A DNA stretch of 64,000 bases. Origin: Justusliebigvirus VEcB. Both the position numbers and the translations under genes were made by a program. Positions 3,009-53,896 of the stretch are shown piece after piece. The stretch lies in sequence record OZ035773.1. One strand, given 5' to 3'. The notes under the pieces were generated by a model. That model was given only the letters and a program-made list of their open reading frames with translations. It did no database searches and had not been told where the DNA came from. Position 1 is the stretch's first letter. The number at the start of each line of letters is the position of its first letter.

Positions 3009-5783
3009 TTAGTTTACCAGTTTATTTATATCTGGTAAAAGATTTATTTCACCTAAGAAATCACCTTCACCTTCCTCTAGCCAACTCTCATATGCTTGTG
3101 CATGATTATAGTTACCATCAAAAGAATCTGCAACAAATTTTTCTACAGTTTTTCGAGATGTGCCAGCACCAAATACACCAAGTTTAATACCATTGATCGG
3201 TAAAGTGGTGCTTGTGGGTACTTTCTCTGTTGCAACACGGTTGATATCTATAATCTCCTGTACGGTTGTATTCCATTGTAAGCATTTAACACAACGGGTA
3301 TGCGCTACATACAGTAGGTTTCGCTCTGCCTCTTCTAGTCCTACCCATTCACCAGTCTTTTTATCATAATTGGAAGGAAAATCATTAGCAACAATAACCT
3401 GATCCCACTCCAAACCTTTAGACTTGTGTGCTGTAGTCAATGTGACTTTTGCTGTAGGAGAATTTCTATGCGTTCTAAGGGTATGTGCTATAGTGTTTGC
3501 CTTACCAGAAACTACAATGTTTAACAAGCGTTTAGCATCTGGATCAGCCTCTGCACACTCAACAAATTCATCCCAGTCTGCGTAAGGTAATACAGTTTCA
3601 TGTTTTACTTTCTCAATATCTCCTCTCCGAAGAGCATTAACACTATCTACCATAGAGATAAAATCCCTGGTATCTACGTTAATAATAATTTCTTCCCCAT
3701 CTGCAATACGATCCATTGCCTCCATAAGCAAGGTTAAATTCTTGCGAAAGATGATAGTGTAAGGTTTTGTATAGTCTACAACATCTGATTTGTAGCTACC
3801 TACTACAGTATCAAAGCCTTTACCAACCAAAGGATGACGCAAAGGTTCTTTATCGCTTAAAATCATATTGGCAATGTTTGCCACTTTGGGGCCAAAACGG
3901 AAGCAAGCAGTTAATGGAAGTTCTGCCCCATACTTAGCTGTTTCAATCATCATATTAGAGCTACCTCTAAATTGATAAATGCAGTTGTGGCTAAGAATTT
4001 CATTGCCAAAGAAGTTAGCAGTATCCTCTACTTCAATATCATAATAGATACCCTCACTATCTACAATGTCCACAATCTCTTCTGCCGTTACAGTATCACC
4101 ATCTTTTACCAACACAGACATGCCTTTAAACAAACCCGCTGCCGGAATTAAGTTATATTTGGCACTGTTCACAGAGGACATGCATTCTTTTAAAGATGCA
4201 AACGGAACTATTTCAAGGATCTTTTGTGCAAAACTCAATGCTTCACGATAAGAATTGAAATATTTACGTACACGGTAACGACCTTCCAATTTAGCAGCAC
4301 TTACGCTTACACCTGCTTTAATCAGTGAAGAATAGATCGGCATTTCACTTTCTGTCCACTCAAAACTAACTTGTGTTCCTTTACAACCTTGCGCTCGCAA
4401 AGTCACTGTTAGCATTTTTCTTTCATCTACTGCACAATTGATGCTGTGCCAGTGTGGATAAGCAAAATGATAATCTTTATCCTCTAAAAGTTTAAAACCA
4501 TTTTGTCCGAATTGTTCAAAGATGTTATTGATCTTTTCTTGATTAATGCCGCGTGAACTTGCTTCAAATACACAAGTAGGAATGCCATATTGTAAACTGT
4601 AAGCCATTTCTTTTTCCATAGCAGCTTCACGGTTTTCAACAATATCCAACACCCATAATTTCTGTGCTTTTTCAGAACGTGTACGTTGCCCCAGTTTAGA
4701 AAAACCTTCTTTATCATCGAATTTGTTAGTGATCCCTACTCGGAAACCTAAATCTTTCCTCCACATTAGGTATACCACCATCTGATCATCTTTCAGAACA
4801 TAGGATGAAGCCCAAATACGATGGTTATGTGTCATATCTAAAGTTTTACCTGTGGCAGTAATAATATTCCTACCTTTTGTACGTGTAGATAAAGTCTTAT
4901 TTGTTACTTTTCTAAATGTAATTTTACCATTAGAATAAGACTCTACCTTATCACCGATTTGTAGGTCTTTCATTGTAACCTGACCATTCTCGGTATTAAG
5001 TACCGTGTTTTCCGACACACATTGGAATTCGTCACCCACTACCACAATTTGTTTTGCAGATTTAGCATTTCGCAGAATAGACAAGAATGCAGGGTTAACA
5101 TCCTGGAATTCATCACCAAAAATAATATCATAACCAAGATCAGCACCAGACAATTCAAACAATTTTACATAGGTGTCATGCGTCATCAAAGTATCTGTAT
5201 TAGGATCAATGCGCTCTCGCCACAATTGTTTTGCATACTTAACTACTTCTGTAATTAGTTTGTGTTCGTTAATACCTTTTCTTTTAATATCTGCAAGATG
5301 TACACTAGGAAAATGTTTACGGCTGATAAAAGGATCATCCGAAAATTCAAACTTACCTACGGTTTGCTTGATCATTAAACCGATCATAGCACGAGTTAAA
5401 AGTGTTTTCCCTCGTTTATCAATAAGATTATTAATCTTAAATTTCTTTGCTATCTCGCTACCTGTACCTGCAACGTTAACATACTGTCCTTCTGGTCGTG
5501 ACAGTTTTGCACGTAAACGATGGTCCAGGAATTGATAGCAAATAGAATGCAATGTACGGCATTCTACATTTAGTGGCATCTTACGTCGTGCTTCTTCTGC
5601 CATGCTTTTATTGAAAGCTAAGTAAAGAATGCGATCTTCTGTACTGTTAGCCAGCAAATAAAGTGTTGACGTTTTGCCTGATCCAGATTTAGCTTGGATA
5701 GTTAAAAAGCGATGGTCTGGAAAAGCCTCCTTAATAGCTGTTTGCTCTTCTGTTGGAGTGAAGCTCAACTCTTTCTTAGCCAT
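3009..5783 (-). CDS. UvrD/PcrA-like SF1 DNA helicase, interrupted by an intein
   Basis: Walker A AKSGSGKTST, motif II GDEFQD, motif III GDEFQ|CIYQFRG split by in-frame insert; start placed at ATG 5783 (SD AAGAGAGG), track ORF extends 13 codons further. Confidence 0.8.
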   Translation of the reverse strand: MAKKELSFTPTEEQTAIKEAFPDHRFLTIQAKSGSGKTSTLYLLANSTEDRILYLAFNKSMAEEARRKMPLNVECRTLHSICYQFLDHRLRAKLSRPEGQYVNVAGTGSEIAKKFKINNLIDKRGKTLLTRAMIGLMIKQTVGKFEFSDDPFISRKHFPSVHLADIKRKGINEHKLITEVVKYAKQLWRERIDPNTDTLMTHDTYVKLFELSGADLGYDIIFGDEFQDVNPAFLSILRNAKSAKQIVVVGDEFQCVSENTVLNTENGQVTMKDLQIGDKVESYSNGKITFRKVTNKTLSTRTKGRNIITATGKTLDMTHNHRIWASSYVLKDDQMVVYLMWRKDLGFRVGITNKFDDKEGFSKLGQRTRSEKAQKLWVLDIVENREAAMEKEMAYSLQYGIPTCVFEASSRGINQEKINNIFEQFGQNGFKLLEDKDYHFAYPHWHSINCAVDERKMLTVTLRAQGCKGTQVSFEWTESEMPIYSSLIKAGVSVSAAKLEGRYRVRKYFNSYREALSFAQKILEIVPFASLKECMSSVNSAKYNLIPAAGLFKGMSVLVKDGDTVTAEEIVDIVDSEGIYYDIEVEDTANFFGNEILSHNCIYQFRGSSNMMIETAKYGAELPLTACFRFGPKVANIANMILSDKEPLRHPLVGKGFDTVVGSYKSDVVDYTKPYTIIFRKNLTLLMEAMDRIADGEEIIINVDTRDFISMVDSVNALRRGDIEKVKHETVLPYADWDEFVECAEADPDAKRLLNIVVSGKANTIAHTLRTHRNSPTAKVTLTTAHKSKGLEWDQVIVANDFPSNYDKKTGEWVGLEEAERNLLYVAHTRCVKCLQWNTTVQEIIDINRVATEKVPTSTTLPINGIKLGVFGAGTSRKTVEKFVADSFDGNYNHAQAYESWLEEGEGDFLGEINLLPDINKLVN
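3984..5021 (-). mobile_element. intein (346 aa) within helicase motif III
   Basis: Insert begins with Cys (CVSENTVL), has TxxH block (THNHRIW), ends ...SHN followed by Cys (+1); flanked by contiguous helicase motif III halves. Confidence 0.7.
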
Positions 5784-9238: not shown

Positions 9239-9505
9239 CTAATTACTGTTAGATCTGTACTCTGTCTTCCATTCACAATGGTAAACTTCAACAGGTTCTA
9301 ACTTCCAGTGTTCAGGAACTAGTTCAGGACAATATCTACAAAAGAGAAATAGATAGATAACTAAGACAGGTATTAAATAGTAAAATGGTATACGATCATA
9401 ACCATACTTACGAGATAACATGTAGACATATAGATAGGGTATAACAATTAATCCTATAACTATAAGTAAGAAGAGAAGTATAAACCTTAGTGTAGTAACA
9501 TCCAT
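9239..9505 (-). CDS. small membrane protein (2 predicted TM helices)
   Basis: 88 aa, two long hydrophobic stretches; SD AGGAGAATA. Confidence 0.55.
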   Translation of the reverse strand: MDVTTLRFILLFLLIVIGLIVIPYLYVYMLSRKYGYDRIPFYYLIPVLVIYLFLFCRYCPELVPEHWKLEPVEVYHCEWKTEYRSNSN

Positions 9506-9583
9506 AGTATTCTCCTATACAGTAATATACTCTGTTCCTGCCCCTCCATGAGTGACAGGAACAATATCTATAGAGAATACTAA

Positions 9584-9640
9584 CTCGCTTCGCTCGTCAC
9601 CTTTCAGGTTTAGGGTAGCATGTTTTTCTGAAAAAGTCAA
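9584..9640 (+). repeat. conserved ~55-bp non-coding element, copy A (CTCGCTTCGCTCG ... TTAGGGTAGCATGTTTTT)
   Basis: Near-identical element recurs at ~36487-36540 in the same orientation. Confidence 0.4.
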
Positions 9641-9669
9641 TACTCTCCACAAAACTTTACAAAATACTT

Positions 9670-15981: not shown

Positions 15982-16533
15982 ATGCGGATTACTGATAAGT
16001 ATGTGTTCTTCTTCTCGGCAAAAGATGAATTTAGCAACTGGTATCTATCATCTTTTATTGAACCTTTAGCTCCCAAGTATAATAATTCTATTACAAGTTC
16101 TGTTGAATTTACTTGTGTGGAACAATATATGATGTGGAGAAAAGCATGTTTGTTTTATGATTACAACATTGCATCTTCTATTTTAACCGGAGATCTAAGA
16201 TATACAGGAGAAAAAGAACAGGCATATTATAAGCGACTAGGTAGATTAGTTAAAGATTACGATGAAGCTACTTGGACTTCTTTACGGGAGAAGATTGTCA
16301 AGCGTGGTTTGTATCTTAAATACACACAAAATGAAGATCTCAAAAATAAACTTATAGCTTACGCAGATAAGGAGTTTGTAGAAGCAAGCCCTTATGATTC
16401 TATTTATGGTATCAAAATTGGGATGTGGGATCGGGACGTGGAAAATAAGGATTGTTGGAAAGGACAAAATCTTTTAGGAAAATGGCATACAGACCTTGCT
16501 GTTTATCTAAAAGCACAATCTGATATTTCCTGA
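15982..16533 (+). CDS. NADAR (YbiA-like, DUF1768) domain protein
   Basis: FFFSAKDEFSNWYLS...EQYMMWRKA...KRLGRLV...ASPYDSIYGIKIG...WKGQNLLGK match NADAR signature blocks; SD AGGAGGTG. Confidence 0.65.
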   Translation: MRITDKYVFFFSAKDEFSNWYLSSFIEPLAPKYNNSITSSVEFTCVEQYMMWRKACLFYDYNIASSILTGDLRYTGEKEQAYYKRLGRLVKDYDEATWTSLREKIVKRGLYLKYTQNEDLKNKLIAYADKEFVEASPYDSIYGIKIGMWDRDVENKDCWKGQNLLGKWHTDLAVYLKAQSDIS

Positions 16534-16752
16534 TATTTTGAAAATTTTTATTTTTATAAAAAGGGGTGTGGGTTTCATGTACGGAAATTCACCCTCTGCA
16601 CAGTATACCCAGAGTAAGTATTATTCTATACTCTGTTAATAAAGTATTTAATTTGTTTGTTGGACTATGGTATCTGATCTTTAAAAGGCATACTATCTCT
16701 TAACTACTACTTATAACAGAACAGTAAAATCATTTTTATAAAAAGTACAAAA

Positions 16753-16949
16753 TTATTTAAAGTTTTTACAGATTTTTGGGTACAAATTTTGAAAATGAAA
16801 AGTTCAAGTTTGGTCAAAATTATTTAAAGTTTTTGTACGTATTTCTATCCAGATTTTGAAAATGAAAACTTCAATTTTTTAAAAATTCCCCAGTTTATTT
16901 AAAGTTTTTTTGCCTTTTTCCGTAGAAAAATCAAAAATGAAAAGTTCAA
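16753..16949. repeat. three tandem ~67-75-bp direct repeats (each with TTATTTAAAGTTTTT and TTGAAAATGAAAAGTTCAA)
   Basis: Both sub-motifs recur three times at ~67- and ~75-bp spacing. Confidence 0.6.
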
Positions 16950-16972
16950 TTTCGTGTTTTTATAGGTGTGTT

Positions 16973-17084
16973 AATGAGAATCATTTTCGTTTGTAAATGA
17001 GAATCATTATCATTTAATTATGTAAGTGATAATCATTCTCAGTAAGAGAATGAGAATCATTAGCAAATGAGAATTTTTCTCATT
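16973..17084. promoter_or_regulatory. cluster of five Fur-box-like palindromes (AATGAGAATCATT variants)
   Basis: Sites at ~16973, 16996, 17027, 17049, 17066; closest match TGAGAATCATTATCA vs Fur 7-1-7 core TGATAATnATTATCA. Confidence 0.4.
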
Positions 17085-17346
17085 TAGAGAATAACGCGCA
17101 GGGGTGGTGTTTGTCTCGCGCTCCCGTGTCCCCTCGCCATACAATAAGAATAGCATAACCAACAACAAAAGCAAGCGATTATTTTTATCTTTACATTTCT
17201 TTACAAATTTATTTTAGACGAGCCACCGGCGATCAACCTTCCAACCAGTGCCCCCTGGTATGTTAGCCCCGCCTTTACGCCGTGGGGGTGGCGTTTCCTC
17301 TTCTGTATGTAAAACAGTATAAGCCCGATCCCTGGGCTTGTCAAGA

Positions 17347-17613
17347 TTATTTTTTGTTTTCTTGCCAGGATAGGACACCTAACCAAAAATACATGTCGCC
17401 CCGCGCCCCTGGCGGGATCTTGCTTTCCCCGCCGCCACTGCAAGCCCATAGATAACCATTAGCGAACGGATCAAAATGATCTATTTCTTCCACCTTATGA
17501 TCGCCCAGGTTGAGAACGGTTTCAACCTTTAAGCCCGTTGCGCTTGCTACCTGGTGCACCGTGCCGCCTTGCCAGCCTAATGAGTGCATGAGGTGTAGAG
17601 TAGGATTTGTCAT
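17347..17613 (-). CDS. hypothetical protein (88 aa) in GC-rich islet
   Basis: Track ORF; SD AAAGGGCGA; local GC content far above the rest of the window; coding status uncertain. Confidence 0.3.
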   Translation of the reverse strand: MTNPTLHLMHSLGWQGGTVHQVASATGLKVETVLNLGDHKVEEIDHFDPFANGYLWACSGGGESKIPPGARGDMYFWLGVLSWQENKK

Positions 17614-17724
17614 GGTATCGCCCTTTCTTTGATGTGCGCCCTGGTTGGCGCGGTAGAAAGATAATAGCCCTTTCCTTTATAGATAGCAAGCAAAAAAGAA
17701 ATGAAAAAAAGATTAAAAAAGGGG

Positions 17725-17753
17725 TTGACGTTCCTCACCTGGTAGCGTATTAT
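17725..17753 (+). promoter_or_regulatory. sigma70-like promoter
   Basis: TTGACG, 17 nt spacer, TATTAT; ~120-nt GC-rich leader before peptide ORF. Confidence 0.45.
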
Positions 17754-17880
17754 TCATCTTGTCGAGGGGGGCGAGGCACAACGACAATAAACAAAAGGAG
17801 GGCGCAATGTAGGACGGGCAAAGGTGAGGATCTCCACAATCCACCGTCACAATAACATTACTTATAAAAGGTTGATAACG

Positions 17881-17976
17881 ATGATCAAGAAAGAAAACAG
17901 CTTGACGGTTGGAACGATTAACGCTATCATTCTTGCCGTTCCATTTTGGGTTGTAGTTGCGGTTATTATTTTTTAA
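17881..17976 (+). CDS. 31-aa hydrophobic peptide
   Basis: Hand-translated MIKKENSLTVGTINAIILAVPFWVVVAVIIF; single TM-like segment; weak SD; downstream of promoter 17725. Confidence 0.35.
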   Translation: MIKKENSLTVGTINAIILAVPFWVVVAVIIF

Positions 17977-17984
17977 AAATATTC

Positions 17985-18042
17985 TTGACAACGTTTTTTA
18001 ATCTGATAAGATGTATCACATAGGGCGGCAATAGTGCCGCTC
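17985..18042 (+). promoter_or_regulatory. promoter + 5' stem-loop cassette 1
   Basis: TTGACA, 16 nt spacer, TAAGAT; then GGGCGGC-aatagt-GCCGCTC hairpin, then SD. Confidence 0.6.
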
Positions 18043-18064
18043 ATAACAGAAGAGAGAAATAATC

Positions 18065-26697: not shown

Positions 26698-26712
26698 ATA
26701 ACATTTCATACC

Positions 26713-26739
26713 AGGGCGCTTATTGCGCCCTTTCTTTTT
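26713..26739 (+). terminator. rho-independent terminator closing the cassette array
   Basis: AGGGCGC-ttatt-GCGCCCT followed by TTCTTTTT. Confidence 0.65.
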
Positions 26740-26827
26740 ACCTAAATAAAGATGATAGCTTTTACCTATCAAAAACGTTCACCGAAAAAAGTGAATAGAT
26801 CGCGGTATCGAGCTAATCAAGGAGCAG

Positions 26828-26968
26828 ATGAACAACCATACCATGAAGATCATAAGGCGTTTACAGCGTGTTTTAGACCGTTTATTTTTAATTTCTTCAT
26901 GCAACTATAGGACAAAAACAGTCTTTTTCTTGTCTTTCCTCTTAAATGATAATCATTCTTATTTATAG
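26828..26968 (+). CDS. possible small ORF (46 aa) reading into a Fur-box-like site
   Basis: Hand-translated MNNHTMKIIRRLQRVLDRLFLISSCNYRTKTVFFLSFLLNDNHSYL; SD AAGGAG 3 nt upstream; speculative. Confidence 0.25.
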   Translation: MNNHTMKIIRRLQRVLDRLFLISSCNYRTKTVFFLSFLLNDNHSYL

Positions 26969-27015
26969 CTGATTATTTATGCAATAAACTGCATAATGCA
27001 ATAATGATAATCATT
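26945..27015. promoter_or_regulatory. two Fur-box-like palindromes (AATGATAATCATT)
   Basis: Sites at ~26945-26957 and ~27003-27015; second reads ATAATGATAATCATTCTTA vs Fur consensus GATAATGATAATCATTATC. Confidence 0.45.
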
Positions 27016-27385
27016 CTTAACTTAAGACCATCTAACTTATAAAATAATAAGTTATCTAACTAAATTAAAGCTAATTATCTTACTTTTATTTATAACATAC
27101 TGTTACTATCTTATTGATAACCTTATATTAAACAACAATAATCAATGTAAATCATTACTAAGCTAACTATAATCTATCTAACCATTAAAACTATAACTAT
27201 AATCTATCGAATTGTTGCACAAAGTAACTATTAAATTGTTAGTAACATTACTAAATAATTCACATCTTATCTATTTATGATCTAATCTTTACCTCCCTAT
27301 TTATTACCTAAATAACCATTTCATGTAGTAATCATTTCATACAATAACTATAACAAGAAATATAATTCGCAAGCGTATCATTAGC

Positions 27386-27539
27386 AGCCTATGCCGGACA
27401 CATAGGCGGCTAATAATAACGCAACTACACCCCCCCACATAATAACTATCGCCGATAGTTATTATTTGTGTTTATGTAGCTTGCAACAATTGCAAGCGCA
27501 ACAATATACATGGTATATTGTATTCCCTTACATTGTTGC
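27386..27539. repeat. cluster of four palindromes/hairpins
   Basis: GCCTATG-n7-CATAGGC (~27386-27406); 27-bp perfect palindrome ATAATAACTATCG-c-CGATAGTTATTAT (~27438-27464); GCTTGCAA-caa-TTGCAAGC (~27478-27496); CAATATAC-atg-GTATATTG nested in CGCAACAAT...ATTGTTGCG (~27496-27539). Confidence 0.55.
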
Positions 27540-27618
27540 GGTGCGTTATTATTAGCTAATGTTTAGAACATTGGCTATAATATAAGCTGCATATAATAAG
27601 CTATACAATAATAAACAT

Positions 27619-27654
27619 AATGAATAATGACACTGAAATGAATAATGACACTGA
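27619..27654. repeat. perfect tandem duplication of 18-bp unit AATGAATAATGACACTGA
   Basis: Two adjacent identical copies. Confidence 0.6.
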
Positions 27655-27794
27655 TGATCATAATGCGCCACCCTCCAGGGGCGCTATGTGAACACAAAGA
27701 AATCTTTCTTGTCAAGAAAAATATCATCATTATTGCGCAAAATTATTTACATCTGAATAGATGATTTTTCATACTATTGCCCCCATATAACTTA

Positions 27795-27853
27795 CTATTT
27801 GTTGCAATGTATTCCCCTATTTGTTGAGCATAGTTATAGCCTATTTGTTGAGC
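27795..27853. repeat. three iteron-like direct repeats CTATTTGTTG(AGC) at ~22-24-bp spacing
   Basis: Copies at ~27795, 27817, 27841 (about two helical turns apart). Confidence 0.55.
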
Positions 27854-27926
27854 CTACTTTCTTAAAAGCGCAATAAATCAGAATTATCTTGATTTTTAGG
27901 TAGTTTTATAGTATAGAAAATATGCA

Positions 27927-27942
27927 AATGATAATCATTATC
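27927..27942. promoter_or_regulatory. Fur-box-like palindrome, best match
   Basis: GCAAATGATAATCATTATC matches Fur consensus GATAATGATAATCATTATC at 17 of 19 positions; overlaps a possible promoter upstream of small ORF 28006. Confidence 0.45.
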
Positions 27943-28005
27943 AGCTATCTTCCACGGGTGGCACTATTTCACACCAGATCATTTCATTTGGCAAGGTGTA
28001 GATAG

Positions 28006-28110
28006 ATGTTTAGACTTGCCAAGTTATTGATTTACTTAGAATTTATCTGTTTTGTTGTAAGTAGAGCCTTTTTTGCTCAGAAAATAATCAAAAGTCTTAT
28101 AAGTCATTGA
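28006..28110 (+). CDS. possible 34-aa hydrophobic peptide flanked by Fur-box-like sites
   Basis: Hand-translated MFRLAKLLIYLEFICFVVSRAFFAQKIIKSLISH; SD AAGGTG 7 nt upstream; speculative. Confidence 0.3.
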   Translation: MFRLAKLLIYLEFICFVVSRAFFAQKIIKSLISH

Positions 28111-28140
28111 ATGATAATGCAAATGATAATTATTCTCATT
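28109..28140. promoter_or_regulatory. composite Fur-box-like site (overlapping GATAAT hexamers)
   Basis: GAATGATAATGCAAATGATAATTATTCTCATT. Confidence 0.4.
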
Positions 28141-28512
28141 GATATTTGAGGGGGACGGTCGGGAAAAATCGGGGGGCGCTGAAAATCGCGTTAAGCACCT
28201 CTCGCAAGCGAGCAGTATTTTGCGGCAAGTTATTGATATTATTGACTTTACGCTTATGAAAAGGGGGTGTGTCGAAATAAATCGGGTATACCGGAAAATT
28301 TTTGTGGCATAGATATTTATTTGTCTATATTATGTACAAAGGGGTGTGTTAAAAATATTAGGTATATATAGAATAATTGATAGGGAAATCCTATACTAAT
28401 TCCTCCATTAATGATGTTTCTATGTTGCTGTTCTTGTAATAGATGAAAAGACGCTGTATGATGTGTGGCATGAAACGTAATCCTACAACGTAATCTTATA
28501 AAGGAGTCTGAT

Positions 28513-39458: not shown

Positions 39459-39746
39459 ATGGAACTAGTGCAAGAAGTTTATGAAAAACTGAAAGAAGAG
39501 AATCTTGATTGGCCTGAACATGCTCTTATTGTCGTCAAAGATACTAATGGTGAAATAAAATTCTCAAGTGTAAGTGAAGATGATGTTGTTTTAAGTCCTA
39601 CAGGATATTATATGAGAGGTGTTACGTGTCTATTCAACACCAAAGTGTATCCTGAAATTAAACTTAGTTACGGTGAACCTGATCATCCAGAAATCGTTAC
39701 ACGTAATGAATATGAAAATTATTATTTTGCTCGTGAAAGCAAATAA
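39459..39746 (+). CDS. hypothetical protein (95 aa)
   Basis: Track ORF; SD TGAGGAGG. Confidence 0.55.
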   Translation: MELVQEVYEKLKEENLDWPEHALIVVKDTNGEIKFSSVSEDDVVLSPTGYYMRGVTCLFNTKVYPEIKLSYGEPDHPEIVTRNEYENYYFARESK

Positions 39747-52802: not shown

Positions 52803-53063
52803 TTACTCCGCAATCTGAGCCATGAATTCACGTAGTTCAGAAAAACCTCCTACGTGGGTTAGCTGTTCACCATCTTCCACAAAAATCTGAGGAAATGTGC
52901 GTGGTAGAACACCTGTTTTCTCTAAAACCAGATTCTGAATCTGATCTAAAGAATAGTCTTCATCTAAGGTAAGGTATTTAAAATCCTGTTCACGCTGTTC
53001 TAGTAGAATCTTAGCGTTAGTGCAGAAAGGACAATTTGGTTTACCGTAGATAATAAAATTCAT
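52803..53063 (-). CDS. glutaredoxin-like redoxin (CPFC active site)
   Basis: From ATG 53063 (SD AAGGAG): MNFIIYGKPNCPFCTNAK...GGFSELREF; sits beside RNR genes. Confidence 0.7.
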   Translation of the reverse strand: MNFIIYGKPNCPFCTNAKILLEQREQDFKYLTLDEDYSLDQIQNLVLEKTGVLPRTFPQIFVEDGEQLTHVGGFSELREFMAQIAE

Positions 53064-53065
53064 TT

Positions 53066-53896
53066 TCACTCCTTGTTTAAAAGTATAGTTAAAGTTCTTA
53101 CAATACCGCTATCAACACTTCGCGGATTTAAAGTAGGATCTGTTTTTAAATAAGATGTTGCTGGTCTGACTGCTTTGGAATTATAGGTTGAAGCAGACAC
53201 AGGATTAACTGTAACAGATAAATCTATAACAAGAAATATCTTACGTGCAAAATCATACCAAGAAATATAATCTGCACCTGCATAGTGTACAATTTTACTA
53301 TTTACACCATCTTTTACAAGTTTAAAAATTGTTTCTGCAAGATCAGGTGCATAAGTAGGACATGACAAATGATCACATACTACATTAAATTCTTTTTGAC
53401 CACCGTTGTAGCGTTCCAACATAGTTTTCAAAAAGTTATGTCCAAATTCACTATAAACAGAAGCTGTTCTGATAATAAGTGCTGTAGGACAAACTGTTTG
53501 TACTAAAGTTTCACCTAATTGTTTACTGTAACCGTAGGTGTTCAAGGGGTTTGTTTTACTATCTTCTGTGCCAGCAACATGCCCATCAAAAACATAGTCT
53601 GTTGAAATATGTACAAACTGTATCAGTAAATCATTACATGCTTTGGCAATGTTTGTTGCACCGTATGCATTAACATTTATACAGGTGTTAACATCTTCTT
53701 CAGCTTTATCTACTGCCGTGTAAGCCGCACAATTCACAACAACATCAGGCACATGCTGTACAAGACTATTCATAACATCTTTAAAGTTGGTAATGTCTAC
53801 ATCACTTGCTTCAATCAAAATAACATCTTCGGGCGCAACTTTTGCCAAAGACTGTCCTAATTGACCTTTTGAACCAAAGATTAAAAATTTTGTCAA
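53066..53896 (-). CDS. rmlD: dTDP-4-dehydrorhamnose reductase
   Basis: N-terminal FLIFGSKGQLGQSL Rossmann motif, ~276 aa, last gene of rml operon. Confidence 0.75.
   Translation of the reverse strand: MTKFLIFGSKGQLGQSLAKVAPEDVILIEASDVDITNFKDVMNSLVQHVPDVVVNCAAYTAVDKAEEDVNTCINVNAYGATNIAKACNDLLIQFVHISTDYVFDGHVAGTEDSKTNPLNTYGYSKQLGETLVQTVCPTALIIRTASVYSEFGHNFLKTMLERYNGGQKEFNVVCDHLSCPTYAPDLAETIFKLVKDGVNSKIVHYAGADYISWYDFARKIFLVIDLSVTVNPVSASTYNSKAVRPATSYLKTDPTLNPRSVDSGIVRTLTILLNKE

Follow-up and report, generated by a model that had tools for sequence, protein, structure and literature searches.

Conserved arrays of Fur-box-type palindromes in an untranslated early region of phi92-like phages and in other virulent phages

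A row of five palindromes in the genome of Justusliebigvirus VEcB was found to have the sequence of Fur boxes and to keep its place across related phages. The row lies at 16973-17084 of the analysed stretch of 64,000 nucleotides (record OZ035773.1; called the window below). In matrix scoring of the sequence, the fit of the phage sites to Fur specificity equalled or surpassed that of real E. coli operators. In bacteria, Fur boxes are operators of the textbook kind; judged by its sequence, the array places this known type of operator in a phage context that is new, conserved and common to several lineages. Such arrays occur in core non-coding regions of three unrelated virulent lineages, near genome ends and early promoters. 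Host Fur is probably the protein that binds them. If it does, these phages would read or exploit the iron status of the host in the first minutes of infection, which would be relevant to phage therapy in iron-poor host tissues. The motif also makes up much of the repeat block in the injection-stop region of phage T5, a mechanistic question about 50 years old, and a role of Fur there can now be tested.

In the literature covered, which included few subscription papers, we found no Fur sites described in Stephanstirmvirinae, Vequintavirinae or the T5 stop signal. Fur boxes on phage DNA were found only upstream of prophage cargo genes, namely sitABCD on lambdoid phages (PMC6969025), and an earlier description is possible. 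The two cases resemble each other in that phage-borne DNA would be read by host Fur, which is the candidate reading for the window array. The sitABCD boxes, however, are single and lie in ordinary promoters of iron-related cargo genes of temperate phages, whereas the boxes described here form arrays in core non-coding DNA of virulent phages.

The array and its match to Fur operators

The array is carried by a virulent phi92-like E. coli myophage. Region 16500-17400 is 97-99% identical to the phi92-like E. coli myophages VivaForever, Paula, inny, alia and phi92, which belong to the genus Justusliebigvirus of the Stephanstirmvirinae. The array sits inside an untranslated stretch of about 1.5 kb (16534-18064), bordered on the left by a NADAR-domain gene (15982-16533) and on the right by a run of small plus-strand genes; the sole gene annotated within the stretch is a small minus-strand ORF. 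Public records carry no annotation at the array locus except mechanical 'repeat_region' features. Three tandem sigma-70-like promoters on the plus strand, with 10/12 matches each, were noted at 17725-18012, before the small-gene block that reaches the right genome end, and they look like an early-promoter cluster. Some records named 'Campylobacter phage' (e.g. C3, MG065656.1), 'Acinetobacter phage' or 'Pseudomonas phage' differ hardly at all from these coliphages, and their host labels look unreliable. The units of the array are as follows.

16970..16988, no strand: Fur-box unit 1, GTTAATGAGAATCATTTTC, 21.3 bits, with the exact 13-mer at 16973-16985
16993..17017, no strand: Fur-box unit 2, GTAAATGAGAATCATTATCATTTAA, 21.3 bits at 16993, containing the 7-1-7 core with one mismatch
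17022..17043, no strand: Fur-box unit 3, GTAAGTGATAATCATTCTCAG, 16.5 bits, in which TGATAATCATTCTCA has one mismatch to the 7-1-7 core
17046..17064, no strand: Fur-box unit 4, GAGAATGAGAATCATTAGC, 20.1 bits
17063..17092, no strand: Fur-box unit 5, AAATGAGAATTTTTCTCATTT plus a conserved extra half-site GAGAAT, 11.9 bits

The original prediction of five AATGAGAATCATT-type palindromes within about 110 bp was borne out, with exact copies of AATGAGAATCATT at 16973, 16996 and 17049, AGTGATAATCATT at 17025, and the palindrome AAATGAGAATTTTTCTCATTT at 17065-17085. Its best match had been placed one base away from the Fur 7-1-7 core, which is true of two units, since TGAGAATCATTATCA (16998-17012) and TGATAATCATTCTCA (17027-17041) each differ from TGATAATNATTATCA by a single base. 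Counted against the 7-1-7 inverted repeat TGATAATnATTATCA, units 1 to 5 have 3, 1, 1, 2 and 3 mismatches. The proposed spacing of two helical turns holds as an approximation; the actual steps from one centre to the next measure 23, 29, 24 and 20 bp (1.9-2.8 turns). Across the window the 13-mer occurs 21 times at two or fewer mismatches, compared with 5.1 +/- 2.5 in shuffled sequence. Unit 2 contains a second match, shifted by 6 bp, at 16999 (15.6 bits). Secondary matches with this shift were seen at 16999, 26948 and 28113/28125, while the main units are 17-29 bp apart. The position of unit 5 is kept in 10/10 aligned phages and is followed by an invariant GAAT.

To score the sites, we built a symmetric 19-bp Fur matrix from 13 sites in eleven Fur-regulated promoter regions of E. 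coli K-12 (fepA-fes, fepD-entS, fepB-entC, fur, tonB, cirA, sodA, fecA, fecI, fhuF and fhuA), all of them listed as footprinted or confirmed (PMC2189734); the matrix was seeded with the textbook consensus, which introduces a mild bias. The real E. coli sites scored 10-22 bits in leave-one-out tests, with a median of 14.9 (n=13), and phage units 1 to 5 scored 21.3, 21.3, 16.5, 20.1 and 11.9 bits. In the whole window, 7 matches of at least 20 bits were observed, compared with a mean of 0.025 in 200 dinucleotide shuffles. Segment 16900-17100, where the local composition is about 26-27% G+C, had 4 matches of at least 16.5 bits against a mean of 0.009 in 1000 dinucleotide shuffles; AT-rich shuffles gave about 0.02 such matches. 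A comparison of Fur-matrix scores with shuffled AT-rich controls had been suggested along with the Fur-box identification; in that comparison the scores lay far above the shuffles and reached or exceeded the range of real sites, which upholds the identification.

The identification is also backed by published Fur consensus sequences. The Fur consensus of Xanthomonas campestris is AATGAgAATcATTctCATT (PMC1790865), and the Fur boxes of A. baumannii include TTAAATGAGAATCATTTTCATTTAT (PMC3055841). The phage unit equals both, an agreement that is independent of our matrix. The logo of 49 distinct phage sites reads AAATGA[G/T]AAT[C/G]ATT[C/A]TCATTT.

We also considered whether the palindromes could act as RNA hairpins. 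This was rejected, for the arms do not covary: at the variable position (G/T) they are complementary in 14/31 distinct sites, and the two arms are not associated (p=0.63). The lack of association indicates that the palindromes are paired half-sites for a dimeric protein rather than conserved hairpins. Rfam and tRNA scans of the region found no known RNA family and returned only a sub-threshold miRNA match, which is meaningless and caused by the palindromes. A promoter scan detected none over the array. A candidate plus-strand promoter spanning the last box (TTGAAT or GCAAAT, an 18-bp spacer, nnGAAT) has a poorly conserved position 2 in its -10 hexamer.

Conserved surroundings and the genome terminus

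Several further elements lie next to the array.

17316..17344, minus strand: promoter P1, TTGACA / 17-bp spacer / TATACT, 11/12 consensus matches
17190..17309, minus strand: GC-rich element of about 110 nt downstream of P1, about 84% identical between Stephanstirmvirinae and Vequintavirinae
17147..17174, minus strand: promoter P2, -35 TTGCTT at 17174-17169, 16-bp spacer, -10 TATTCT at 17152-17147, from alignments
17085..17140, minus strand: GC-rich leader of about 55 nt from the inferred P2 start to the array, a conserved block in alignments A1 and A2
16732..16952, plus strand: three direct repeats of about 70 bp directly left of the array (repeat family D1)

A distant BLAST gave about 84% identity for 17188-17313 in Vequintavirinae, among them phages of Klebsiella, Cronobacter, Pectobacterium and Salmonella. 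The locus was compared across ten annotated phages and 16 loci from IMG/VR. Wherever the upstream region is intact, which is so for 21 distinct loci, one to five Fur-type sites occur in the same place (21/21), about 190-290 bp left of an anchor sequence within the conserved element. The array is thus syntenic in two subfamilies and in phages of five host genera (E. coli, Klebsiella, Salmonella, Cronobacter and Pectobacterium). Two loci departed from this pattern: one is truncated, and in the other an inserted gene separates the element from the array. In an IMG/VR relative (L032, 6600-7100), a minus-strand gene sits exactly between the conserved element and the expected position of the array, and it has the look of a mobile insertion. 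Regular spacing of the sites, at 29 bp, was seen in Phapecoctavirus and Certrevirus.

Both promoters are well preserved. P1, whose start would be near 17309, maintains its hexamers and spacing in 18 distinct sequences although the sequence of its spacer varies. For P2, all 22 sequences share the TTG of the -35 and A2/T6 of the -10, again with a variable spacer sequence. From P2, whose inferred start is near 17140, transcription would run toward the array. The array lies about 55-170 bp downstream of conserved minus-strand sigma-70 promoters (from P2, about +56 to +170). P1 and P2 are aimed at the array and the three ~70-bp repeats beyond it, and no gene follows either promoter.

The transcribed parts differ in their folding. 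The ~55-nt leader (17085..17140) folded no better than shuffled sequences. The ~110-nt element contains indels of 1 and 4 nt, which mark it as non-coding, and its minus strand folds better (z of -2.1 versus -0.4). Only one compensatory pair was seen in it, with a covariation term of -0.6 kcal/mol, and Rfam gave no match for this element. We regard 17190-17309 as a candidate for a new phage non-coding RNA, or else a DNA element.

Every lineage has three direct repeats of about 70 bp left of the array, the Vequintavirinae set being of different sequence in the same place. The repeats were also considered as a general phage promoter motif, which was rejected since TTATTTAAAGTTTTT is specific to the three copies at 16732-16952 and occurs nowhere else. 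The repeats of the two subfamilies are unrelated, one set being of the TTATTTAAAGTTTTT type and the other of the GGTTCTCGATCG...AAAAAATTTTT type, and their layout is iteron-like. Their coordinates are 16732-16952 in the window, 1090-1300 in L016, 1230-1440 in L015 and 1085-1270 in L017.

Matches to the Fur matrix recur outside the five-site cluster, which itself stands as originally predicted; the recurrence had not been foreseen. Additional matches lie at 26942 (17.1 bits), 27000 (21.2), 27924 (24.2, a perfect 7-1-7) and 28113-28143 (20.3), all within a second gene-free stretch, 26700-28512. In phage UAB_1, which is 98.8% identical, annotated 343-bp direct terminal repeats align to window positions 27851-28193. 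This alignment places two strong sites inside the terminal repeat and two about 0.85 kb ahead of it. It also means that the window crosses the physical genome terminus and that the assembly is circularly permuted.

26942..27018, no strand: two Fur-box sites about 0.85 kb before the terminal repeat, 17.1 and 21.2 bits
27851..28193, plus strand: 343-bp direct terminal repeat with Fur-box sites at 27924-27942 and 28113-28143, from the annotated UAB_1 termini

The sites in and before the terminal repeat keep their positions in phAPEC8 and Klebsiella phage phi1_175008. The whole UAB_1 genome contains 13 matches of at least 16.5 bits: four at the array, two before the repeat, two in each repeat copy and three isolated ones. 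Ten of the 13 thus fall in three non-coding spots in the early block or terminal repeat, and two of the isolated three are within genes and one is at a gene junction. All clusters belong to the block in which small plus-strand genes run across the genome terminus. By the UAB_1 termini, the array is 11.1-11.7 kb (7.6-7.9%) from the right physical end, outside the 343-bp terminal repeat. A scan for sigma-70 promoters over the terminal-repeat and pre-repeat sites gave nothing convincing. Since these sites have no obvious promoter partner, one cis-regulatory model may not cover all sites. Isolated matches in the window were noted at 53049-53067 (21.0 bits), the junction of a glutaredoxin gene and a dTDP-4-dehydrorhamnose reductase gene, and within genes at 39708-39726 and 4463-4481 (18.1 bits each).

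The same motif in T5-like and RaK2-like phages

An exact-pattern scan of IMG/VR matched at least 120 contigs. Among 80 loci examined, 12 had at least three sites within 250 bp, and these include T5-like genomes and the jumbo phage RaK2. Arrays were found in T5, in three T5-like contigs, in RaK2-like phages and in other viral contigs. In T5, the block at 9468-9640 is composed of TTTTTAAATGAGAATCATT... units, and the 20-mer AAATGAGAATCATTATCATT is identical in unit 2 of the window and at T5 9576-9595. The T5 record labels this block 'direct repeat C copies 1-4' and 'palindromes E-I'. The block belongs to Repeat Region 3, which is held to contain the injection stop signal; first-step-transfer DNA has a calculated shear point at about 9618, with the 7.9% nick at 9661 (bioRxiv 10.1101/866236). 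That study treats DnaA boxes in the region and makes no mention of Fur.

In the RaK2-like phage Muenster, arrays occupy 787-906, 1073-1097, 1306-1324 and 2422-2446, within the first 2.5 kb of a 20-kb terminal repeat. A Fur box lies there about 52-73 bp downstream of a strong sigma-70-like promoter. Another Fur-type site was noted in T5 (L161) at 228-252 (18.2 and 16.2 bits), inside dmp and about 230-250 bp from the left terminus, a tip distance similar to that of the sites in the phi92-like terminal repeat (74-287 bp).

Binding protein and possible functions

We then considered which protein would bind the arrays. When 50,697 phage records were searched by tblastn with E. coli Fur, these phage families gave no match, and tblastn with the first-step (pre-early) proteins of T5, including A1 and A2, found no homologue in the phi92-like genome. 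With neither a phage Fur homologue nor shared first-step proteins, a host factor is the likeliest binder. The motif is common to unrelated phages, is identical to the Fur consensus, and lies in DNA that is read before phage proteins are made; together these points argue that host Fur probably binds the phage arrays. A conserved 88-aa ORF (17613-17347, minus strand) adjoins the locus; it is conserved down to 45% identity and has the motif LGWQGGTVHQVA. A by-eye impression that it encodes a helix-turn-helix protein was rejected, as it has no detectable DNA-binding fold. It had no Pfam match, and a confident AlphaFold model (pLDDT 94) gave no structural match, so that it may be a new small fold.

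Our preferred reading, which we put forward tentatively as somewhat short of an even chance, is that the array makes early leftward transcription from P1 and P2 subject to a block or gate that depends on Fur. The five palindromes would be high-affinity operators for the iron-loaded Fur of the host, placed in the untranslated control region of the early gene block. Soon after DNA entry, when host proteins alone are present, Fur dimers would fill the row of sites. Once occupied, the array would block or gate transcription started at P1 and P2 as well as any process coupled to it. In this way an early step would be tied to host Fur and to iron status for as long as the block lasts. We favour a gate because the geometry is conserved, because no gene follows P1 or P2, and because Muenster has the same promoter-to-box distance.

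Comparison with bacterial Fur operators (fepA-fes, fhuF and cirA of E. coli, and those of Xanthomonas and Acinetobacter) bears on this proposal in both directions. The 19-bp inverted-repeat motif is common to both, the phage scores lie in or above the natural range, and both have several sites per locus, a few secondary matches in the phage overlapping at a shift of 6 bp. The phage array, however, belongs to a virulent phage genome and controls no iron-related gene. It lies 55-170 bp downstream of promoters and not over a clear -35/-10 pair, unlike classical Fur operators, which counts against a gate. Fur does not usually act through a block placed 55-170 bp beyond the transcription start. The spacing is a second counterpoint: the phage sites are discrete and 20-29 bp apart instead of forming overlapping clusters, whereas neighbouring sites in natural Fur clusters are in 3- or 6-bp register, 6 bp being typical (PMC2189734).

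Another use of bound Fur would be its removal; titration of host Fur had been suggested in the original prediction, beside iron-responsive control. According to this explanation, which we consider unlikely, the 10-11 or so strong sites per genome would soak up host Fur during replication and thereby de-repress iron uptake for phage enzymes. It would account for the many non-overlapping strong sites in non-coding DNA without evident promoters, and for the range of one to five sites at the syntenic locus among relatives, as expected of a dosage trait. The phage encodes iron-dependent class Ia and class III ribonucleotide reductases, and there is precedent in that multicopy Fur boxes de-repress the Fur regulon, as exploited in the FURTA assay. 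A pure decoy, however, needs neither the fixed position relative to P2, the leader and the terminal-repeat landmarks nor the regular 29-bp spacing. De-repression of the host would moreover be useful only if host transcription and translation continue in infection.

It is similarly unlikely that the sites are merely Fur-box-like and serve as operators or iterons for a dimeric DNA-binding protein of the phage, such as a replication initiator or an early repressor. The layout fits such a role. In lambda, OR/OL and the O-binding sites of ori-lambda are rows of about four palindromes of about 19 bp, spaced by about two turns near promoters and AT-rich DNA; the window likewise has four to five palindromes of about 19 bp at about two-turn spacing, beside AT-rich repeats and promoters, with the conserved 88-aa ORF adjoining. 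The lambda arrays, however, have a phage-encoded binder and lineage-specific sequence, whereas the motif found here equals published bacterial Fur consensus sequences and is common to T5-like and RaK2-like phages, and the first-step proteins of T5 lack phi92-like homologues. The motif stayed constant between subfamilies while the adjoining ~70-bp repeats diverged beyond recognition. The 88-aa ORF, which shows no DNA-binding fold, does not look like the cognate protein that, together with lineage-specific sites, iterons would be expected to have nearby. Sites as strong as these would also be bound by Fur in the cell whatever else binds them.

The T5 parallel raises a further explanation, namely that the array is, or lies within, a stop of the T5 injection type, at which a host protein would hold up DNA transfer once the terminal ~8% has entered, pending the action of early phage proteins. 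We think this improbable for the phi92-like phages. The likeness is considerable. Both T5 and the window have arrays of the AAATGAGAATCATT(ATCATTT) unit, and in both the untranslated region around them is strongly conserved and lies about 7.9% from a genome end; in T5 the AAATGAGAATCATT units form the block of 'direct repeat C' and palindromes E-I that contains the shear point just before the nick. The 66-bp DRE repeats of T5 adjoin its block as the ~70-bp repeats flank the window array. The segment from the array to the right end is a small-gene block headed by the three strong sigma-70-like promoters, and further sites lie within 300 bp of the genome tip, or within 2.5 kb in Muenster.

Against it, the T5 region is defined by paired DnaA boxes in inverted repeats (IRD'/IRC') that are absent from the phi92-like locus: no TTWTNCACA was present between 12665 and 26259, and the count in the window equalled chance. 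The T5 stop region is inside a terminal repeat of about 10 kb, whereas the phi92-like array is outside a terminal repeat of 343 bp, and the two regions share no sequence homology beyond the motif. T5 has a two-step transfer that depends on A1/A2, for which the phi92-like genome lacks homologues, and to our knowledge two-step transfer is not known for phi92-like phages. A cytoplasmic DNA-binding protein has no evident way of halting DNA transfer. The agreement at 7.9% may be a coincidence, and the Muenster arrays lie at 0.2-0.7% of the genome. A wider form of the idea, with an equally small chance of being right, is that Fur-box arrays are a shared cis-element of large virulent enterobacterial terminal-repeat phages (T5-like, phi92/rV5-like and RaK2-like) and act as host-protein-dependent checkpoints on entry or first transcription. 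If the checkpoint reading were true, Fur would be the missing host factor of the T5 injection stop signal, or one of them.

A structural role of host Fur, in which it would bend or wrap DNA to help start replication or to assist terminase at the genome ends, is very unlikely. Sites in or near the terminal repeat in three phage lineages would suit it, the regular 29-bp spacing suggests an ordered nucleoprotein array, and two promoters pointing into AT-rich repeats resemble transcription-activated origins. We know, however, of no architectural role for Fur in either process, this phage family has no mapped origin or packaging site, and replication or packaging would become iron-dependent. Functionless chance repeats in an AT-rich spacer, as might be supposed for a region of only 26% G+C, are excluded for practical purposes by the 4 matches of at least 16.5 bits against 0.009-0.016 in local dinucleotide shuffles and by the synteny of the array across two subfamilies and five host genera.

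One more short sequence was noted in the untranslated regions. AAAGGGGTGTG occurs at 16560, 28261 and 28338, a marginal excess (3 versus 0.85 expected), and the similar CAAAGGGGGTGT is found ahead of a Fur array in an unrelated contig (L090).
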